Shown here: in pieces, positions 5,461 through 15,106 of the stretch
Position numbering within the stretch: position 1 is the stretch's first letter
How the letters are laid out: each line of letters opens with the position of its first letter
Source: Promethearchaeota archaeon
GTDB taxonomy: Archaea > Asgardarchaeota > Lokiarchaeia > Sigyniarchaeales > SOKP01
DNA length: 21,489 nucleotides
Assembly: GCA_048938445.1 (NCBI GenBank)
Contig: JBHLME010000076.1
Location: 1 to 21,489 of the forward strand
Direction of reading: 5' to 3'
Program-made: the position numbers and the translations under genes
Notes under the pieces: generated by a model
Databases searched by the model: none
Told to the model about the DNA's origin: nothing
What the model saw: the letters and a program-made list of their open reading frames with translations, nothing else

Positions 5461-6477
5461 ATGGTGCAAACTTCTCGAATTAAAATAGATGAAAAGTCAT
5501 TTCAAGCATTAATTTCTTTATTGAAACAAAAGACAGGTTTAAATTTAGGATATTACAGACGCACCTTTATATTAAGAAGAATCCAAGCAAGAATGATTCG
5601 AATAAATTGTAATAATCTTGAAAGATATAACAAGTATTTATTGTCAAATGTTAATGAACTCAAGAGATTTGTTGAAAGTTTTAATATTAATTACACATAT
5701 TTTTTTAGGGACTGGGATGTTTATGCTACAATTCAAAACATATTACTCCAATCATTAAAAATTGAAAATGATGAATTTTTAAATAAATTAAGACCAAGAA
5801 TTCCAGAGACACCTCAAAAACTTCCAAAAAGAACAAGGATTGCAGAACAAGATATAATATATAATAAAAATTTGCTTTCTAATCTTAAAGAATTAGCAGT
5901 TTACAAAAAGATAAATAATCCAAAAAAAGTTAAAGTACCAATTTATATTTGGTCTTGTGCTTGTGCTACAGGGGAAGAACCTTATTCTTTAGCAATGATT
6001 TTTAACAATCTTCAAGAAAGCCTTCCAAACTTTTCTAAATATGAAATTATTGCTTCAGATATTGATAAATTCGCTATTGAAGCCGCAAAAAGGGGGATTT
6101 ATACAGAAGAATCAATAAAATACATGTCAAAATATAATGAAAAGAGGTATTTCAAGAAGAAAACCACAGTTTTAGGAGATCAATATCACATAACTAACAA
6201 TATTAAGAAAAGCATAACTCTCCTAAATGAAGATATTACAAAAATTCACCTTTATTCATGGAAATTTGACTTGATCTTTTGTCGTAATCTATTGATTTAT
6301 TTTAACATCGAAAATAGAAATATGTTTATTAGAACTCTCGAAAGACAACTCAATGATGGTGGGATTTTAGTACTGGGAAAGGCTGAATCACTTTTTGAAA
6401 AAGAAGGCTCTCTTAAACTGATTGATCCAACCAACCATATATATGTTAAAGATAGATTTGATAAAATCCAAATATGA
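5461..6477 (+). CDS. cheR: CheR-like SAM-dependent protein-glutamate methyltransferase (copy 2)
   Basis: KTGLNLGYYRRTFILRRIQARM (CheR N-domain), INYTYFFRD, IWSCACATGEEPYS, ASDID and DLIFCRNLLIYF. Confidence 0.88.
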   Translation: MVQTSRIKIDEKSFQALISLLKQKTGLNLGYYRRTFILRRIQARMIRINCNNLERYNKYLLSNVNELKRFVESFNINYTYFFRDWDVYATIQNILLQSLKIENDEFLNKLRPRIPETPQKLPKRTRIAEQDIIYNKNLLSNLKELAVYKKINNPKKVKVPIYIWSCACATGEEPYSLAMIFNNLQESLPNFSKYEIIASDIDKFAIEAAKRGIYTEESIKYMSKYNEKRYFKKKTTVLGDQYHITNNIKKSITLLNEDITKIHLYSWKFDLIFCRNLLIYFNIENRNMFIRTLERQLNDGGILVLGKAESLFEKEGSLKLIDPTNHIYVKDRFDKIQI

Positions 6478-6483
6478 ATTTTA

Positions 6484-6555
6484 TGGGAGTGAAAGGATTC
6501 GAACCTTCCCAACGAGCTCCCAAAGCTCGGATGCTGACCACTACATTACACTCCC
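6484..6555 (-). tRNA. tRNA-Pro(UGG)
   Basis: Acceptor GGGAGTG/CACTCCC-A; anticodon arm CGAGC-TTTGGGA-GCTCG; T-loop TTCGAAT. Confidence 0.95.
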
Positions 6556-6595
6556 ATGCTAAAATTAACTTCTTAGCCAATATGTATTTTTAAAA

Positions 6596-6670
6596 TACTC
6601 CTGGTGGGATTTGAACCCACGTTTCTTTGATGAAAGCCAGTTATCCTTAACCTAACTAAATGACAGGAGC
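6596..6670 (-). tRNA. tRNA-Glu(UUC), degenerate anticodon stem (possible pseudogene)
   Basis: Acceptor GCTCCTG/CAGGAGT-A and T-arm GTGGG-TTCAAAT-CCCAC are intact. Anticodon arm ACTGG-CTTTCAT-CAAAG pairs poorly. Confidence 0.75.
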
Positions 6671-6677
6671 GTTCTAA

Positions 6678-6749
6678 AGCACGCGACAGGACTTGCACCT
6701 GCATGAGGAGATTTGCAGTCTCCCGCTTTTACTTCTCAGCCACGCGTGC
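6678..6749 (-). tRNA. tRNA-Cys(GCA)
   Basis: Acceptor GCACGCG/CGCGTGC-T (U73); anticodon arm GGAGA-CTGCAAA-TCTCC; variant T-loop TGCAAGT. Confidence 0.92.
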
Positions 6750-6760
6750 AGTAAATAAAA

Positions 6761-6835
6761 AGGCACTGAGAGGATTTGAACCCCTGATCAGCTACTTACA
6801 AGGAAGCTGCCTTATCCAGACTTGGCCACAGCGCC
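6761..6835 (-). tRNA. tRNA-Thr(UGU)
   Basis: Acceptor GGCGCTG/CAGTGCC-T; anticodon arm GCTTC-CTTGTAA-GTAGC (one mismatch); T-loop TTCAAAT. Confidence 0.92.
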
Positions 6836-6843
6836 AAATTTAA

Positions 6844-6915
6844 TGCGGGAGGGGTGATTTGAACACCCGTGAATCACTTGGAAGGCGAGCATCCTAACCT
6901 CTAGATGAATCCCGC
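6844..6915 (-). tRNA. tRNA-Gly(UCC)
   Basis: Acceptor GCGGGAT..CTCCCGC-A (imperfect at the base); anticodon arm CTCGC-CTTCCAA-GTGAT; T-arm GGGTG-TTCAAAT-CACCC. Confidence 0.9.
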
Positions 6916-6924
6916 TTGATTATA

Positions 6925-6998
6925 CGGTGGTGTCGGGATTTGAACCCGAGTTTGAAGGGCGACGACCATCAGTACTCACCAAGCTATACTACACCACC
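6925..6998 (-). tRNA. tRNA-Asp(GUC), atypical C33
   Basis: Acceptor GGTGGTG/CACCACC-G (G73); anticodon arm GATGG-TCGTCGC-CCTTC. Confidence 0.87.
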
Positions 6999-7004
6999 GA
7001 GGTA

Positions 7005-7078
7005 TCTGGGCGGGAGGAATTGAACCTCCAATCATCGAGTCTACAGCTCGCCGCCTTGTCCATTTTGGCCACGCCCAG
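7005..7078 (-). tRNA. tRNA-Tyr(GUA), archaeal/eukaryal type
   Basis: C1-G72 acceptor CTGGGCG/CGCCCAG-A; anticodon arm GCGAG-CTGTAGA-CTCGA; short variable loop. Confidence 0.93.
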
Positions 7079-7087
7079 ATTGATTTC

Positions 7088-7160
7088 TACTCCCGGACGG
7101 ATTTGAACCGGCGTTATGGGATTCAAAATCCCAAATGCTTGACCACTACACCACGGGAGT
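7088..7160 (-). tRNA. tRNA-Gln(UUG)
   Basis: A1-U72 acceptor ACTCCCG/CGGGAGT-A (archaeal Gln signature); anticodon arm TGGGA-TTTTGAA-TCCCA. Confidence 0.93.
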
Positions 7161-7173
7161 ATTTATCAATAGA

Positions 7174-7197
7174 GTTTGGGATCTAGTGATCCCAAAC
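7174..7197. repeat. Perfect 10-bp hairpin in the Ala-Gln spacer
   Basis: GTTTGGGATC-TAGT-GATCCCAAAC. Confidence 0.7.
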
Positions 7198-7205
7198 ATA
7201 TCGAT

Positions 7206-7247
7206 GATCGCCAAATGCGACTTCTTTTCTTTTCTTATGATCACCTC
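7206..7247 (-). repeat. Conserved array spacer element, copy A
   Basis: Minus strand reads GAGGTGATCATAAGAAAAGAAAAGAAGTCGCATTTGGCGATC. 26 of the first 31 aligned positions match the copy at 8175 (+). Confidence 0.7.
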
Positions 7248-7262
7248 CTTTTTTTTATTTTG

Positions 7263-7334
7263 TGGAGCCGGAAGGACTTGAACCCTCATCTCCCAGTATG
7301 CAAAACTGGTGCTTTTCCATTAAGCTACGGTCCC
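7263..7334 (-). tRNA. tRNA-Ala(UGC)
   Basis: Acceptor GGGACCG/CGGCTCC-A with G3:U70; anticodon arm CCAGT-TTTGCAT-ACTGG. Confidence 0.94.
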
Positions 7335-7348
7335 ATTTATTGTAAGAA

Positions 7349-7420
7349 GGTTCGGTGAGAGATTTGAACTCTCATCTGTCGCATCACAAACAACTATACT
7401 TCCATTATACTAACCGAACC
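7349..7420 (-). tRNA. tRNA-His(GUG), encoded G-1
   Basis: G-1 plus GTTCGGT/ACCGAAC-C73; anticodon arm GTTGT-TTGTGAT-GCGAC. Confidence 0.92.
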
Positions 7421-7440
7421 TTGTGATAATTTCTTTCAAA

Positions 7441-7577
7441 GGAATTAATACCCTCCTCTTAATTCATTGTAGTAAATTATTGAAAGTTTTAAAGAGGTGG
7501 AAGAAGTTATATTGAAATCTAATTGAAAAAGTAAATAGAAAAATGGGTGATATTACAGGAGACGGGTATTAATATTC
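7441..7577. other. Long imperfect inverted repeat in the array A leader
   Basis: ATTAATACCC-TCCT-CT-TAAT-TCA (7444-7466) pairs with TGA-T-ATTA-C-AGGA-GAC-GGGTATTAAT (7548-7573). Confidence 0.55.
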
Positions 7578-7690
7578 AATGAATATAGCGTTCACTACAT
7601 TTTTGCCCCTCCGTCGGGGCGCCTTTATTATGATATATAGTAAATACCAAATTTACACGTCTCATAGTATAGTTAATAACTCATCTTTAA

Positions 7691-7775
7691 TATTTAAATA
7701 TTATGGTCAAAATTGCCCACACTTTTCCCATTTTCAATTTTATGATATTTCTAGCGATAGATTTAAATATATAAT
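7691..7775. promoter_or_regulatory. Candidate divergent promoters between arrays A and B
   Basis: TATTTAAATA (7691-7700) and TTAAATATATAA (7763-7774) flank TTGCCCA/TTTCCCA repeats. The same layout recurs at 14283-14365. Confidence 0.45.
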
Positions 7776-7827
7776 ATGCAATGATAATCCTATGAACAAT
7801 CGCATATTTAAGATCAAGATGCGTTGG

Positions 7828-7847
7828 CGACGAGTGAATGTCGTCAT
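7828..7847. promoter_or_regulatory. CGAC-N8-GTCG motif, copy 1
   Basis: CGACGAGTGAATGTCGTCAT is 16/20 identical to 14417-14436. Confidence 0.55.
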
Positions 7848-7937
7848 GATTAATAGATTTAAATATTAAATTCATTTAAATCTCTCACTTAAATACAGCG
7901 ATTAATATTTCTAACTTTTAATCCCTTGACATATTCC

Positions 7938-7954
7938 TTGAAAGACTTTATAAA
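7938..7954 (+). promoter_or_regulatory. BRE-TATA promoter proximal to array B
   Basis: ttGAAAGAC-TTTATAAA, ending 46 nt upstream of tRNA-Asn. Confidence 0.65.
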
Positions 7955-8000
7955 TACTTACATTCTGATACGACGACGGGATTTAATATGAATATAACAT

Positions 8001-8073
8001 ACCCCCGTATCATAATTGGTAGTGTTCCAGGCTGTTAACCTGTGAGGTGTATGTTCGAATCATGCCGGGGGTG
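8001..8073 (+). tRNA. tRNA-Asn(GUU)
   Basis: Acceptor ACCCCCG/CGGGGGT-G; anticodon arm CCAGG-CTGTTAA-CCTGT; T-loop TTCGAAT. Confidence 0.9.
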
Positions 8074-8083
8074 CTAAATTTAT

Positions 8084-8156
8084 AGAGTCATGGTCTAAAT
8101 AGGGAGGACCCTCGACTGAAGCTCGAAGGATGTAGGTTCAAGTCCTACTAACTTCA
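8084..8156 (+). tRNA. tRNA-Phe(GAA), degenerate acceptor stem (possible pseudogene)
   Basis: Anticodon arm CTCGA-CTGAAGC-TCGAA; T-arm GTAGG-TTCAAGT-CCTAC; acceptor AGAGTCA/TAACTTC has two mismatches. Confidence 0.78.
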
Positions 8157-8174
8157 TATAAAATAAATTTAATT

Positions 8175-8216
8175 GATGTGATCATTGGAAAGAAAACAAG
8201 TCGCTTCTATACGACC
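8175..8216 (+). repeat. Conserved array spacer element, copy B
   Basis: GATGTGATCATTGGAAAGAAAACAAGTCGCTTCTATACGACC is homologous to 7206-7247 (-). Confidence 0.7.
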
Positions 8217-8264
8217 AAAGGTAAAAAATTTATGAGTAAAATAAGTTAGTTTAATTAAAAAATT

Positions 8265-8339
8265 AGGGGTGTCGATTAGTCAGGTTAGGTCACCGTTCTG
8301 ATACAGCGGAGAACGTGAGTTCAAATCTCACCACCCCTA
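8265..8339 (+). tRNA. tRNA-Ile(GAU)
   Basis: Acceptor AGGGGTG/CACCCCT-A; anticodon arm CCGTT-CTGATAC-AGCGG; T-arm GTGAG-TTCAAAT-CTCAC. Confidence 0.92.
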
Positions 8340-8346
8340 CTAAAAT

Positions 8347-8368
8347 GAGCTTGTGGCTCAATCTGGTC
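8347..8368 (+). pseudogene. 5' fragment of a tRNA (acceptor 5' strand plus half of the D-arm)
   Basis: GAGCTTG-TG-GCTC-AATCTGGTC begins 7 nt after tRNA-Ile. No anticodon arm, T-arm or matching acceptor 3' strand follows. Confidence 0.6.
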
Positions 8369-8424
8369 ATCACAAAAAATTCACAAATTGATGAAAAAAT
8401 CCCTTTCCACTCTTGTACATTAAA

Positions 8425-8497
8425 TGGAGTGTGATCTAATGGCTAGGATGCTTCCTTTACGAGGAAGATGATGCAGGTTCGATTCCTGCCACTCCAA
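8425..8497 (+). tRNA. tRNA-Val(UAC)
   Basis: Acceptor TGGAGTG/CACTCCA-A; anticodon arm CTTCC-TTTACGA-GGAAG; T-arm GCAGG-TTCGATT-CCTGC. Confidence 0.93.
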
Positions 8498-8507
8498 CTC
8501 TAAGAGA

Positions 8508-8580
8508 GAGGGTATGGCCAAGTGGATGAGGCAGTGGGCTTCTAACCCACAGATCGTCGGTTCAAATCCGATTACCCTCT
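8508..8580 (+). tRNA. tRNA-Arg(UCU)
   Basis: Acceptor GAGGGTA/TACCCTC-T; anticodon arm GTGGG-CTTCTAA-CCCAC; A20 in the D-loop. Confidence 0.93.
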
Positions 8581-8589
8581 AATAAAAAT

Positions 8590-8663
8590 GGGAGTGTAGC
8601 ATAGTTGTTTAGTGCATTGGGCTCCAAACTCGAAGGTCACCGGTTCAAATCCGGTCACTCCTA
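8590..8663 (+). tRNA. tRNA-Trp(CCA), intron-less
   Basis: Acceptor GGGAGTG/CACTCCT-A; anticodon arm TTGGG-CTCCAAA-CTCGA; D-loop lacks the G18G19 pair. Confidence 0.9.
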
Positions 8664-8672
8664 TGATATAAA

Positions 8673-8745
8673 GGGCTATTAGCGTAGTGGCTAACGCAGC
8701 GGGCCTTTAACCCGAAGAACGGGGGTTCAAATCCCTCATAGCCCA
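8673..8745 (+). tRNA. tRNA-Lys(UUU), atypical C33
   Basis: Acceptor GGGCTAT/ATAGCCC-A; anticodon arm GCGGG-CCTTTAA-CCCGA. Confidence 0.9.
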
Positions 8746-8753
8746 TAAATCTT

Positions 8754-8825
8754 ACGGACGTAGTATAATCGGGAAGAATTTCAAATTCATGATCTGAGGT
8801 AGTGGCTCAAATCCACTCGTCCGTA
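8754..8825 (+). tRNA. tRNA with CAU anticodon (probably Met), divergent
   Basis: Acceptor ACGGACG/CGTCCGT-A (A1-U72); anticodon arm TCAAA-TTCATGA-TCTGA; T-loop CTCAAAT. Lacks the initiator's three G-C anticodon-stem pairs. Confidence 0.78.
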
Positions 8826-8834
8826 TTTAAATAA

Positions 8835-8907
8835 ACACCCGTGGTCCAAGGGATAGGGCCCTCGCCTTCGAAGCGATAAGATGTAGGTTCAAGTCCTACC
8901 GGGTGTA
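8835..8907 (+). tRNA. tRNA-Arg(UCG)
   Basis: Acceptor ACACCCG/CGGGTGT-A; anticodon arm CTCGC-CTTCGAA-GCGAT; T-arm GTAGG-TTCAAGT-CCTAC. Confidence 0.92.
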
Positions 8908-8911
8908 TCAA

Positions 8912-8983
8912 AGGAGTGTAGCTTAGTGGTAGAGCATGGTCCTTATATGGCTAAGGTCGAAGGTTCAATTCCTTCCACTCCTA
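8912..8983 (+). tRNA. tRNA-Ile(UAU)
   Basis: Acceptor AGGAGTG/CACTCCT-A; D-arm GCTT/GAGC; anticodon arm TGGTC-CTTATAT-GGCTA; T-arm GAAGG-TTCAATT-CCTTC. Confidence 0.87.
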
Positions 8984-9066
8984 TTTTAATATAATTGATA
9001 TCTTGAAAGATTATGTACTTTAAAATTTTTCATAAGTAACTAATTAAAATATAATTTGTCCAATTA

Positions 9067-9600
9067 CTACCAAGTAATTTCAAAAATAGATTTATCTTTA
9101 TCAATAATTTCAACTGTACTTGTTTCAATCCCGAACATTTCCAAAATTCCTATAAAAACACCTTTAAACAACAAGGCATCATAAGATTTAGCTGGTGCGG
9201 GAGCTTGAATTATGACATGCCCCTCCTCAAATTTTATAATTTCTCGGGGTATGACTTTAGAGACATCATCATCTTTATGGTCATTGAGAAATGTTTGTGA
9301 CTCATATCTTAGAGCTTCCGAAGGCCTTTCAAAATCTGGTAAACCAACAGTCTGCTTTATTATTGGAAAGATATTTTTTCCCATATTAACCAAAGCATTC
9401 ATGCCCAATGGAGATGCTTCAATATATGTATTTAAAAACAATTCGAGTAACTCACCATCATACCATCCTTCGGGTTCAAGTTCACTAAAATGTTTTCCTA
9501 TTTTATTATAAAGTGCTTGATCTGCTTTTTTTTGGTCATCTTTATAAAGATTCATTAATCTTCCGCAGAAAGTAATATACTTTCCATGTACTTGTACCAT
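9067..9600 (-). CDS. Hypothetical soluble protein, possibly H-NOX/V4R-like ligand-binding fold
   Basis: 177-aa ORF with protein-like composition. LEPEGWYD...LVNMGK...FKGVFIGILEMFG...FEITW is reminiscent of H-NOX/V4R-type proteins (inference). Confidence 0.7.
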   Translation of the reverse strand: MVQVHGKYITFCGRLMNLYKDDQKKADQALYNKIGKHFSELEPEGWYDGELLELFLNTYIEASPLGMNALVNMGKNIFPIIKQTVGLPDFERPSEALRYESQTFLNDHKDDDVSKVIPREIIKFEEGHVIIQAPAPAKSYDALLFKGVFIGILEMFGIETSTVEIIDKDKSIFEITW

Positions 9601-13594: not shown

Positions 13595-13610
13595 TAATAT
13601 AAAGTAATAG

Positions 13611-13694
13611 CGTGAGGGATGGGATTTGAACCCATGGTGGACCAGCCACATCAACTTAGCAAGTTGACACATTACCTGACTATATTACCCTCAC
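13611..13694 (-). tRNA. tRNA-Ser(GCU)
   Basis: Acceptor GTGAGGG/CCCTCAC-G; anticodon arm TCAAC-TTGCTAA-GTTGA; long variable arm GTGG-CTGGT-CCAC. Confidence 0.92.
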
Positions 13695-13703
13695 ATTTAT
13701 TAG

Positions 13704-13791
13704 CGCGACCGGGAGGATTCGAACCTCCGGTGGTGTAAAACCACTCCCACTCTCAAGGCAGGTACCTTCGGCCAGGCTCAGTCACGGCCGC
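13704..13791 (-). tRNA. tRNA-Ser(UGA)
   Basis: Acceptor GCGGCCG/CGGTCGC-G; anticodon arm CCTGC-CTTGAGA-GTGGG; long variable arm; G73. Confidence 0.9.
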
Positions 13792-13799
13792 TTTTTTAA

Positions 13800-13883
13800 T
13801 ACGGGAATGCGGATTTGAACCGCAGAACCTCCTACGAGGAGTAGTGTTTGAATCTACTGCCTTTATCACTCAGCCATTCCCGT
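13800..13883 (-). tRNA. tRNA-Leu(CAA)
   Basis: Acceptor ACGGGAA/TTCCCGT-A; anticodon arm GTAGA-TTCAAAC-ACTAC (31-39 mismatch); variable arm TCCT-CGT-AGGA; A73. Confidence 0.83.
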
Positions 13884-13889
13884 TTTTTA

Positions 13890-13973
13890 TGGTGCGGATG
13901 GCAGGATTTGAACCTGCGATGCACTTAGCACCAGCTCCTAAGGCTGGCTCCTTACCAATTCGGTCACATCCGC
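13890..13973 (-). tRNA. tRNA-Leu(UAG), CCA encoded
   Basis: Acceptor GCGGATG/CATCCGC-ACCA; anticodon arm CCAGC-CTTAGGA-GCTGG; long variable region. Confidence 0.94.
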
Positions 13974-13982
13974 ATTGTTTTA

Positions 13983-14064
13983 TGGTACAGGGAGAGGGAT
14001 TCGAACCCACGAGCACTTTGCCATAGATCTTAAGTCTATTGCCTTCCCATTTGGCTATCCCTGC
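13983..14064 (-). tRNA. tRNA-Leu(UAA), CCA encoded
   Basis: Acceptor GCAGGGA/TCCCTGT-ACCA; anticodon arm ATAGA-CTTAAGA-TCTAT; long variable region. Confidence 0.94.
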
Positions 14065-14282
14065 ATATTATTTAGGATTTGGTTTTACATATAGAAGAAC
14101 GAGTAAAAGAAATATGAATTTTCTTGGAAATGAATAAAAATCTTGAATGAAAAAGCTGCTGTTAACTGATCTCTAACTGACTATAACGATAAAAGACTGA
14201 ACAATCTGCTCAGCAACAATAATAAAATATTATTTGAACCATTATTGTACGAGATCATTAAATTTAAAACATATAGTTATGC

Positions 14283-14365
14283 TTATAAATATATCGCATG
14301 ATTTTTCCCACTTTAATGGGTAAAATATTCTGGATTATTCAATATAATAATACTTAAATATATAA
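14283..14365. promoter_or_regulatory. Candidate divergent promoters with a palindromic operator
   Basis: TTATAAAT (14283-14290), palindrome TTTTTCCCA-CTTTAA-TGGGTAAAA (14302-14325) and TTAAATATATAA (14354-14365). Confidence 0.45.
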
Positions 14366-14416
14366 CTCTCTTTCATAAATGTATGTTAAAATGTGTTTAT
14401 AGAATCGGTAATCTTT

Positions 14417-14436
14417 CGACAAGAGAAAGTCGTTAT
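14417..14436. promoter_or_regulatory. CGAC-N8-GTCG motif, copy 2
   Basis: CGACAAGAGAAAGTCGTTAT is 16/20 identical to 7828-7847. Confidence 0.55.
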
Positions 14437-14459
14437 ATGCAATGGGATCACTTTAACAG

Positions 14460-14565
14460 ATAGTCGAGGATCCATCTATAAATATTACACATCTTACATA
14501 GTAATAACTTATTTATAACTAAATACAACCGAATGCTTGATTATCATGGACGGATTCTCGACTAT
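14460..14565 (+). other. 14-bp long-range stem in the intergenic leader
   Basis: ATAGTCGAGGATCC (14460-14473) pairs with GGATTCTCGACTAT (14552-14565), including one G-U pair. Confidence 0.6.
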
Positions 14566-14751
14566 TTTTAAGTTCAATTAATGAGAATCACCAAGAAAAA
14601 TAATTGAAATAATGATTATTTTATTGATAATCTTACCCAGAAGTTAGATGATGTCAATTTGAAATAAACACGCATGATAATTTAGCGAAATTTTGAATAA
14701 CTAGAGACTTTATCCATTTTATTATTCACACATTTCTATTTCAAATACTAA

Positions 14752-14825
14752 GGACATGTAGCTCATGGGGTTAGAGCATTCGGTTCTTTACCGAAAGGAG
14801 GTGGGTTCAAATCCCCCCATGCCTT
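14752..14825 (+). tRNA. Degenerate tRNA, anticodon CUU (Lys); possible pseudogene
   Basis: Acceptor GGACATG/CATGCCT-T; D-arm GCTC/GAGC; anticodon arm TTCGG-TTCTTTA-CCGAA (U37); mismatches in the acceptor and T stems. Confidence 0.72.
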
Positions 14826-15004
14826 CTAATAATGATATTGATAATTATAAATAGAAGAAGGTTCTGAAAGCCTGGATGTAAATTTACTAAAAAAATTTAT
14901 ATGATATTTTTAACTAATTAGGTTATCTTAGTTAGAATTGAAAATTATTTCTATAAACTATATTACCGAGAAACAACTACTTTAGTATAAAAAATTTTTT
15001 AACA

Positions 15005-15106
15005 GCCAAGGTGGCGTAGAAATCTTTAATTTCTGAAGGTTACGAAACCCGGGAACGCACCAGACTGAAGATCTGGGTATCGGGGGTTCAAATCCCCCCC
15101 TTGGCA
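15005..15106 (+). tRNA. tRNA-Phe(GAA) with a 26-28 nt intron in the D-loop (about 15020-15047)
   Basis: Acceptor GCCAAGG/CCTTGGC-A; anticodon arm CCAGA-CTGAAGA-TCTGG; perfect T-arm. The insertion forms a BHB-like structure (CGTA/TACG helix with 3-nt bulges). Confidence 0.9.

Follow-up and report, generated by a model that had tools for sequence, protein, structure and literature searches.

A conserved spacer element, probably a structured non-coding RNA, in divergent archaeal tRNA arrays

Functional RNAs carried in transfer RNA (tRNA) precursors are known as a kind. The tRNA region of phage T4 holds two small RNAs, whose role is given as unknown in the passages available (PMC3014915), and E. 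coli tRNA external transcribed spacers have been described, in passages citing the original work, as pairing with small RNAs (Lalaouna et al. 2015, as cited in PMC7213987). Here we describe an element that occurs twice in a 21,489-nucleotide (nt) stretch of DNA (contig JBHLME010000076.1, C215; the whole stretch is called the window), once in the tRNA-Ala to tRNA-Gln spacer of one tRNA array (7162..7261, minus strand) and once in the tRNA-Phe to tRNA-Ile spacer of a second, divergent array (8158..8264, plus strand), both spacers being delimited by the tRNA ends. The element is probably a conserved non-coding RNA module that belongs to the tRNA transcripts. No Rfam family matches it, and no description of it was found in the literature searched.

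In the passages available, the T4 small RNAs are, like the element, non-tRNA RNAs in a compact same-strand tRNA array, presumably released from a common precursor; T4 is a bacterial phage whereas the element lies in an archaeal chromosome, and the likeness is one of description only. The E. coli spacers, as far as those passages go, resemble it as pieces of a tRNA precursor with a base-pairing function of their own proposed after processing. They are, however, bacterial, Hfq-linked and paired with small RNAs, whereas the only conserved complement found for the element is the 3′ end of 16S ribosomal RNA (rRNA). Antitermination signals of the boxA/boxB type, present in bacterial rRNA operons and in lambdoid phages (nut sites), consist of a linear motif and a small hairpin. 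The element has the same combination early in a long untranslated operon, as these signals have in untranslated or polar operons; unlike them, it did not turn up at rRNA loci in relatives, and arrays can do without it, the likeness being one of architecture alone. We know of no archaeal counterpart of boxA/boxB, nor of a conserved hairpin module in the E. coli external transcribed spacer.

One survey of archaea records tRNA gene clusters in Halobacteria and Methanobacteria alone, and such clusters are thought to be accessory (PMC6333295). The present arrays likewise bring many tRNAs together in an archaeal genome, but in one with actin and profilin homologues, and the survey passages available mention no spacer element. 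The words array, tandem and spacer are absent from the available passages of a 2026 preprint on Asgard tRNA introns. The literature searched held nothing further on tRNA gene clusters or arrays in Lokiarchaeota or Asgard archaea, and supplementary files may hold more. With Rfam 15 at the gathering threshold the window gave 27 matches, all tRNA; over 7150-8280, at E up to 5, the search returned the tRNAs and, below threshold, two Plastid-ycf2 matches that fall on tRNAs, but nothing else, and the related loci likewise gave tRNAs only.

Structure and strand of the element

The core of element A (7196..7256, minus strand) consists of an A-rich tract, the motif GGAGGUG (7242..7248), a 20-nt purine-rich linker, a first hairpin (hairpin 1, GUCGC-AUUUG-GCGAU with a G-U closing pair, 7207..7221) and a few bases beyond. 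A second hairpin (hairpin 2, 7174..7197) with the 10-base-pair (bp) stem GUUUGGGAUC/GAUCCCAAAC and the loop ACUA follows. The upstream neighbour is tRNA-Ala(UGC) at 7262..7334 on the same strand, and the whole spacer is the presumed excised RNA, provided that RNase Z and RNase P cut at the tRNA ends. The core of element B (8166..8226, plus strand), downstream of tRNA-Phe(GAA) at 8083..8157, has a weaker, degenerate form of the motif, GAUGUG (8175..8180), a 19-nt linker and hairpin 1 (GUCG...CGAC, 8200..8215), in which four pairs form and the fifth position is a C-A mismatch; hairpin 2 is lacking. Covariance models were built stepwise, R1 from 3 copies, R2 from 7 and R3 from 16. Element A, which was aligned with 15 other copies, scored 69.8 bits with R1 and 66.1 bits with R2, and element B 67.3 and 57.7 bits, respectively.

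These two elements had been picked out in an earlier note on this DNA, and its description holds in every measured particular. The letters stand as quoted; GAGGTG (minus) begins at 7247, 15 nt past the Rfam end of tRNA-Ala (7263), and GATGTG (plus) at 8175, 18 nt past the Rfam end of tRNA-Phe (8156), as it had placed them. The 31-nt cores share the 26 positions that it counted, with 4 mismatches and 1 gap, both end in the GTCG...CGAY hairpins that it named, and they lie in the longest spacer of each array (100 nt in A and 107 nt in B, a tRNA-Glu at 6596-6670 being counted). A local alignment of the whole spacers scored 38, against a mean of 18.3 (standard deviation 2.9) for dinucleotide shuffles, of which 1 in 2000 reached 38, and against 12 for a reverse-complement control. 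Strict and medium regular expressions for the spacer motif each gave two matches in the genome of 4,627,293 bases, both in C215. The spacer of copy A folds with −26.7 kcal/mol (z −4.43); that of copy B folds no better than its shuffles (z −0.27).

Among copies scoring at least 35 bits, which were used for the anatomy, the module reads 5′ to 3′ as an A-rich tract, GGAGGUG, a purine-rich linker, hairpin 1 and often CA. GGAGGUG is invariant in all nine copies that follow tRNA-Ala (A copies) and in L301B and L304x, with GAUGUG, AGAGGUG, UGAGGUG or UUAGGUG taking its place in the other copies that follow tRNA-Phe or tRNA-Asn (B copies); copies are named here by genome (G), contig or locus (L) or window (win). 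Hairpin 1 starts 19-22 nt after the GUG and has 5 bp, GUCGY, a loop that is mostly CUYGAA, and RCGAY. In its alignment 74 of 75 cells are paired and two of the five pairs change on both sides (C-G to U-A, G-C to A-U); none of 500 shuffles reached the paired share or the covariation score, and sliding the partner cut pairing to 17-61%. Hairpin 2, a 10-bp stem of the form GUUUGRG.../...CYCAAAC, occurs only in copies after tRNA-Ala. It was present in 7 of the 9 copies searched (eight A copies and L304x; L308A ends at the contig end and was outside this search), being absent from G051A and L304x. G049A, whose hairpin 2 is longer, was excluded from the alignment, and the six aligned copies have the loops GCAA (three times), GAAA, ACUA and one of 6 nt. 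Here 59 of 60 cells are paired and 2 of the 10 pairs are compensatory, a result that 11 of 500 shuffles reached. The remainder of the spacer cannot be aligned between lineages.

The strand was considered from the non-Watson-Crick cells of both hairpins. Nine G-U cells, six in hairpin 1 and three in hairpin 2, would become A-C mismatches if read on the other strand, which would mend one mismatch only, that of winB. GCAA and GAAA are GNRA-type loops, meaningful on the tRNA strand only. Because both features favour the tRNA strand, we conclude that the functional form, if judged from sequence, would be an RNA of tRNA sense. The element also lies between tRNA-processing sites on that strand, as an excised tRNA-spacer RNA would, and of the functions proposed in the earlier note, that of a small RNA best suits an element that is conserved and structured, shows compensatory changes, reads on the tRNA strand and has cutting sites of tRNA-processing enzymes on its flanks.

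Several further structures and classes were tried and set aside. Judged by eye, no more than about 5 of 8 A copies could form a closing helix of GGUG with CAC(C/U) downstream of hairpin 2, and a helix between the linker and the tail around hairpin 2 appears in winA, G052A and L301A only. A T-box-like UGGN follows hairpin 1 in some lineages only, and pairing between the element and the conserved intergenic blocks showed no covariation. A frameshift cassette of the dnaX kind has a like architecture, but there is no upstream open reading frame (ORF) here, and a tRNA remnant would lack its acceptor partner. Box C/D small RNAs carry a C box (RUGAUGA) near the 5′ end and a D box (CUGA) near the 3′ end; a C box was seen in 1 of 16 copies and a D box in 6 of 16, four of these at +110 to +123, in the next tRNA, and two at −15, upstream of the motif. 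For a terminator on the sense strand, a run of T5 or longer was found in none of 16 copies within the examined stretch, and a terminator scan flagged no sense-strand site in either spacer.

Copies in related arrays

The sample comprised about 330 distinct genomes of one class and one exact-pattern scan of metagenome contigs. Over 135 family genomes, R1 recovered the window's two copies and those of G020, G051, G049 (two) and G052, all else scoring at most 32.4 bits. R2 over 151 order genomes gave four matches of at least 57 bits and then none above 31.8, and R3 over 151 class genomes four of at least 49.8 bits and then none above 33.7. None of the six weak-match loci examined away from arrays had a tRNA. 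The exact-pattern scan returned eight loci, seven of them tRNA arrays, and R2 found ten copies on these contigs, the second copies on L301, L307 and L308 not being required by the pattern; L306 duplicates G020. Diverged copies were seen in the Asn-Phe spacer of G046 and G047 (26.7 and 19.7 bits). In total there are 18 distinct copies in 7 family genomes and 7 metagenome contigs, 16 of them scoring 35-79 bits. The motif is thus present in homologous arrays, and the covariance-model search of related genomes did not find it in unrelated intergenic DNA, the two points on which the earlier note had proposed that its claim be judged.

All 18 copies begin 8-35 nt past a tRNA 3′ end on the same strand, and most are then followed by another tRNA. 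The nine A copies are those of the window, L301, L302, L305, L307, L308, G049, G051 and G052. The upstream tRNA-Ala(UGC) was called in seven of them; at L302 the preceding tRNA, of 91 nt, was labelled Tyr by ARAGORN, and for L308A it lies outside the visible sequence. B copies follow tRNA-Phe in the window, L301 and G020, and tRNA-Asn in G049, L307, L308, G046 and G047. The remaining copy, L304x, stands after an Asp-Glu-Gly operon, and its element has 48% G+C against 29-39% in the other copies. The earlier note's placing of the element after the second tRNA of both arrays is therefore true of the window and L301, but not of the g6 lineage, in which the B copy comes after the first tRNA (Asn).

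Five loci (window, L301, G049, L307 and L308) carry both an A and a B copy. G051 has an A copy only; G020 has a B copy only, its A site holding a second tRNA-Ala, and G047 likewise has only a B copy, its Ala-Gln spacer measuring 6 nt where that of G049 has 138 nt. The arrays of G044 and G045 and the array seen in G008 have no copy. In G052 the locus is a fragment, with part of an intergenic block, tRNA-Ala, the element and a tRNA-like remnant, and on L301 no tRNA was called after copy A, where the sequence begins like the tRNA-Gln of other arrays. The rRNA loci of relatives appear to be without the element, since no model match was found in the family and order genomes with complete 16S genes (G012, G032, G038).

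The best matches among copies were winB with winA (65%), G049B with G051A (71%) and with G049A (70%), and L301B with G020B (73%). Similarity is lowest (51%) between B copies from the two different positions, and A and B copies form no separate clades. Over 62 nt only, this pattern hints at, and would suggest, repeated copying or conversion between inverted copies. The DNA contigs of four runs over 6900-8500 are short pieces, one of which has a differently filled Phe-Ile spacer; in them no joint of an inverted form of the segment between the copies was seen, which is no evidence either way. A search for RNA runs with the sequence of 7100-8300 listed none. A megablast search of 6400-9100 against a phage collection gave no match. 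With a first degenerate DNA pattern on viral and genome contigs, the matches listed included apparent chance matches in G+C-rich bacteria, and a stricter pattern had no match in viral contigs.

Proposed role and rival explanations

The likeness of the element to a Shine-Dalgarno region was examined by duplex energies against the 16S tail of G012 (UGGAUCACCUCCU), which belongs to another genus of the same family. With its flanks, window copy A forms 11 uninterrupted pairs with this tail (−20.5 kcal/mol, reached by 0.005% of random genome windows). The A copies together range from −14.5 to −20.5 kcal/mol. Of 19,997 random 26-nt windows of the genome, no more than 0.2% do as well, and their first percentile is −11.6 kcal/mol. 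Before long ORFs of this genome, GAGG occurs within 20 nt in 186 of 2153 cases against 52 of 2153 control regions, and GGAGG in 56 against 9, AAAAA being the most enriched word. GGAGGTG is not start-specific: 11.8% of its 347 genome copies stand before an ORF, against 5.6-11% for permuted controls. The element thus resembles the Shine-Dalgarno regions of a minority of genes here, with an A-rich context and GGAGGUG complementary to the 16S tail, but differs in that 11 of 16 copies, including all nine A copies, have no start codon 4-12 nt downstream; the five that have one share no common position, and no frame is conserved. By its sequence the arm looks like a translation-initiation region without a start.

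From these observations we infer that the module is transcribed within the poly-tRNA precursor and that a tRNase Z cut behind the upstream tRNA, together with an RNase P cut before the next, would free an RNA of roughly 60-140 nt, as the established roles of these enzymes lead one to expect. With least certainty, we propose that the freed arm would mimic a start-less translation-initiation region and pair with the 3′ end of 16S rRNA. The RNA would thus act on small ribosomal subunits in trans, whether as a decoy or as a tether, and the expression of the extra tRNA set would thereby be tied to the translation machinery. Equally tentatively, the B copy would be a shortened, partly degraded duplicate of the A copy. 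A role in trans fits the distribution, because one copy per locus suffices (G051, G020, G047), the element persists without an array (G052, L304) and some arrays are free of it; a necessary signal in cis would fit these loci less well. The whole chain, from structured spacer RNA through excision with the tRNAs to a 16S-pairing arm acting in trans, is put forward tentatively, as something that may well prove wrong in part. Pairing with 16S rRNA, considered as a mechanism by itself, we regard as rather doubtful.

Apart from the borrowed 16S tail, a number of points weigh against this proposal. The covariation support is real but modest, with two pairs per hairpin, and the shuffle figures for the hairpins overstate it, because the copies are kin and the first alignment was model-fitted. 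The B copies pair only weakly with the 16S tail (−6.3 to −13.8 kcal/mol; −9.5 for window copy B) and are without hairpin 2. In thermodynamic ensembles the motif is often paired within the spacer (mean unpaired probability 0.02-0.73), and the case for a free arm is weaker for being predicted partly paired. Only a few per cent of long ORFs have a Shine-Dalgarno-type motif before them, which restricts what a decoy could do. Moreover, any function must be dispensable, given the arrays of G044, G045 and G008.

The earlier note had also offered a ribosome-sensing mini-ORF, and this idea failed: the element is not a peptide gene. The two short frames read as the note gave them, the first without a start codon, and belong to the frame with the fewest ORFs (3 of 15 copies; 6 of 15 in another). 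A translated leader peptide would draw support from the commonest frame, in which the hairpin encodes Ser-(Ser/Pro)-Arg-(Asn/Ser)-Asp and a start-bearing ORF crosses it in 12 of 15 copies, and from an AUG immediately before the hairpin in G020B, L301B, L304x and G052A. In 8 of those 12, however, the start is the motif's own GUG, so that the motif cannot serve it; the peptides run from 3 to 47 residues, winB, L301A and L302A have no ORF, and G052A stops at codons 4, 7 and 11. The linker varies by 1-3 nt, which puts the hairpin in all three phases relative to the GUG, and synonymous to non-synonymous codon differences are 2:7 (G051A against G049A) and 1:9 (G020B against L301B). Neither a shared start, in-frame indels nor a synonymous excess was seen, A copies have no start codon at the expected distance, and chance alone gives open frames of 15-30 codons in such sequence. 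We therefore hold a translated mini-ORF to be very improbable.

A signal acting in cis within the nascent poly-tRNA transcript, placed near the 5′ end of each array and either insulating processing or folding or else promoting antitermination or processivity, is an unlikely explanation, yet one with a pattern in its favour: each of the five loci with two copies has one on either side of the divergent promoter region, in the first or second spacer, even though the spacer of the B copy differs (Phe-Ile or Asn-Phe), and both arrays are long operons without translation, about 1 and 0.9 kilobases (kb) in length. Arrays of 9-11 tRNAs nevertheless do without the element (array A of G020 and of G047, array B of G051, and G044, G045 and G008), it is kept after a lone tRNA-Ala in G052 and at the end of a three-tRNA operon in L304, with no long array downstream, and the rRNA loci of the relatives named above lack it. 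The processing or antitermination signal of the earlier note, though it may exist, is accordingly disfavoured as a necessary cis signal. Decay is less likely still. The element might be the leftover ribosome-binding site and hairpins of a former small gene, or a copied spacer in neutral drift, as its frequent absence, the shorter B copies with degraded motifs (GAUGUG, UGAGGUG, UUAGGUG), the decayed tRNAs of other spacers (window 8341-8424; the Ala-Gln spacer of G008) and the small ORFs inside the G020 and G008 arrays would allow. Against such drift, lineages whose spacers are otherwise unalignable, the contig of 48% G+C among them, have the motif, the linker length and both hairpins in common, and compensatory changes preserve pairing in A and B copies alike.

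A feature of the DNA or of the opposite strand, whether a substrate of recombination or gene conversion or a terminator that halts antisense transcription from the convergent genes short of the divergent promoters, appears distinctly unlikely to us. The genes converging on the array ends (5461-6477 plus, 9067-9600 minus) would give a terminator something to stop, on the other strand of copy A the hairpin is followed by runs of T8 and T4, and the terminator scan flags the other strand of copy B; the closeness of winB to winA is the hint of exchange between inverted copies already mentioned. The same scan, however, leaves the other strand of copy A unflagged, the G-U cells and the GNRA-type loops speak for the tRNA strand, the natural place to stop read-in would be the array ends rather than eight tRNAs inside, and the single-copy loci offer recombination no partner. 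Least probable, on a par with the peptide, is a small mobile insertion that targets tRNA trailers. It would account for the patchy presence and the three different positions, for sites after Ala, Phe and Asn plus Gly in L304, and for filled and empty sites in close relatives such as the Ala-Gln spacers of G049 and G047, but possible terminal repeats or target duplications are indistinguishable from the A/T-rich background, genomes with the element have only one or two copies, all at tRNA loci, and no transposase or other protein partner is linked.

The array loci, their host and what the element may mean

The window is the entire contig C215 of an assembly of 256 contigs (4,627,293 bases, 29.6% G+C). 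ARAGORN called 26 tRNA genes in it and Rfam a 27th, the tRNA-Glu at 6596-6670 (minus) that ARAGORN overlooked and at whose place related arrays have tRNA-Glu(UUC). The blocks lie at 6483-7420 (minus), 8001-8983 (plus) and 13610-14064 (minus) with 14752-15106 (plus), by ARAGORN and Rfam. Together the 27 genes form a full set for all 20 amino acids; as a side observation, this set (6483-9000, 13610-15106) is uninterrupted, has mostly U in the first anticodon position and includes tRNA-Ile(UAU). Of 50 tRNA matches in the genome, the 27 in the window are all at most 88 nt long, and 9 of the 23 outside it span 100-139 nt, the size of intron-bearing genes. The window arrays therefore look like an accessory, intron-free tRNA set, of which no report in Asgard-type archaea was found in the literature searched. 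Arrays with the same order were found in two other genera of the family and on metagenome contigs, and in none of five other genomes of the own genus.

The host is, by inference, an archaeon of Asgard type. The archaeal 16S model is the best-scoring one in same-family genomes, and the own genome, in which a search for rRNA found no 16S and no 23S, contains an actin homologue scoring 424 bits as well as a match to profilin that lies at the cut-off. The window contig carries Ras-family GTPases. The 16S gene of G043 is interrupted by a contig end, and in G012 the 16S is followed by a 138-nt, intron-bearing tRNA (L062 3125-3262) with no 23S.

Other parts of the array loci also drew attention. Between the divergent arrays, which are 580 nt apart in the window, a conserved non-coding block at 7558-7667 consists of a G+C-rich hairpin enclosed by a terminal helix of 10 bp that does not vary (GAGACGGGUA with UACNCGUCUC). 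The block is common to the window, L301, G049, G051, L307 and G047 with little covariation, and Rfam gave nothing for it at E up to 5; it may be either another small RNA or a DNA site with a regulatory role. Another conserved stretch between the arrays, at 7777-7856, contains a hairpin in which both arms differ from lineage to lineage (GACGAC/GUCGUC versus GACGGA/UCCGUC) and is flanked by two AGATTTAAATA boxes (7757, 7853) resembling archaeal TATA elements. The 84-nt Ile-Val spacer at 8341-8424 begins like a tRNA, and G020 and L301 have tRNA-Lys there, so it is probably a decayed tRNA. In array A of G020 a 94-amino-acid ORF without Pfam match lies between tRNA-Cys and tRNA-Glu (L013 3352-3636), and array A of G008 has a similar one at the same place (L014 about 7735-7970, read by eye only); the Cys-Glu spacer of the window has 7 nt only. 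The tRNA-Phe of the G020 array is 103 nt long (L013 9253-9355), intron-sized, unlike that of the window. Large leucine-rich-repeat proteins flank the G020 arrays (L013 407-2881, 4913-8716, 10530-11639), one with a weak TIR match, and since the gene of one of them, of 1267 amino acids, lies between the arrays, the inter-array promoter region there measures 4.8 kb against 580 nt in the window.

What the element means depends on which reading holds. If it is only a relic, its value is that of annotation alone. A bolder variant of the proposal made here, in which an array-born, start-less mimic of a ribosome-binding site binds the anti-Shine-Dalgarno tail in trans and so retunes initiation, is something we think unlikely; if true, switching on the arrays would at once supply splicing-free tRNAs and shift ribosomes between Shine-Dalgarno-led and leaderless mRNAs, and the element would represent a new class of ribosome-directed regulatory RNA derived from tRNA processing. 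If the element is a real RNA product, it would be an uncatalogued archaeal RNA motif in a locus with a complete, uninterrupted tRNA set, in genomes where introns are frequent in the remaining tRNA genes. The few functional RNAs known from the tRNA precursors of phages and bacteria would then gain a counterpart among eukaryotes' archaeal relatives, and the element would offer a handle on the reason why these arrays exist.

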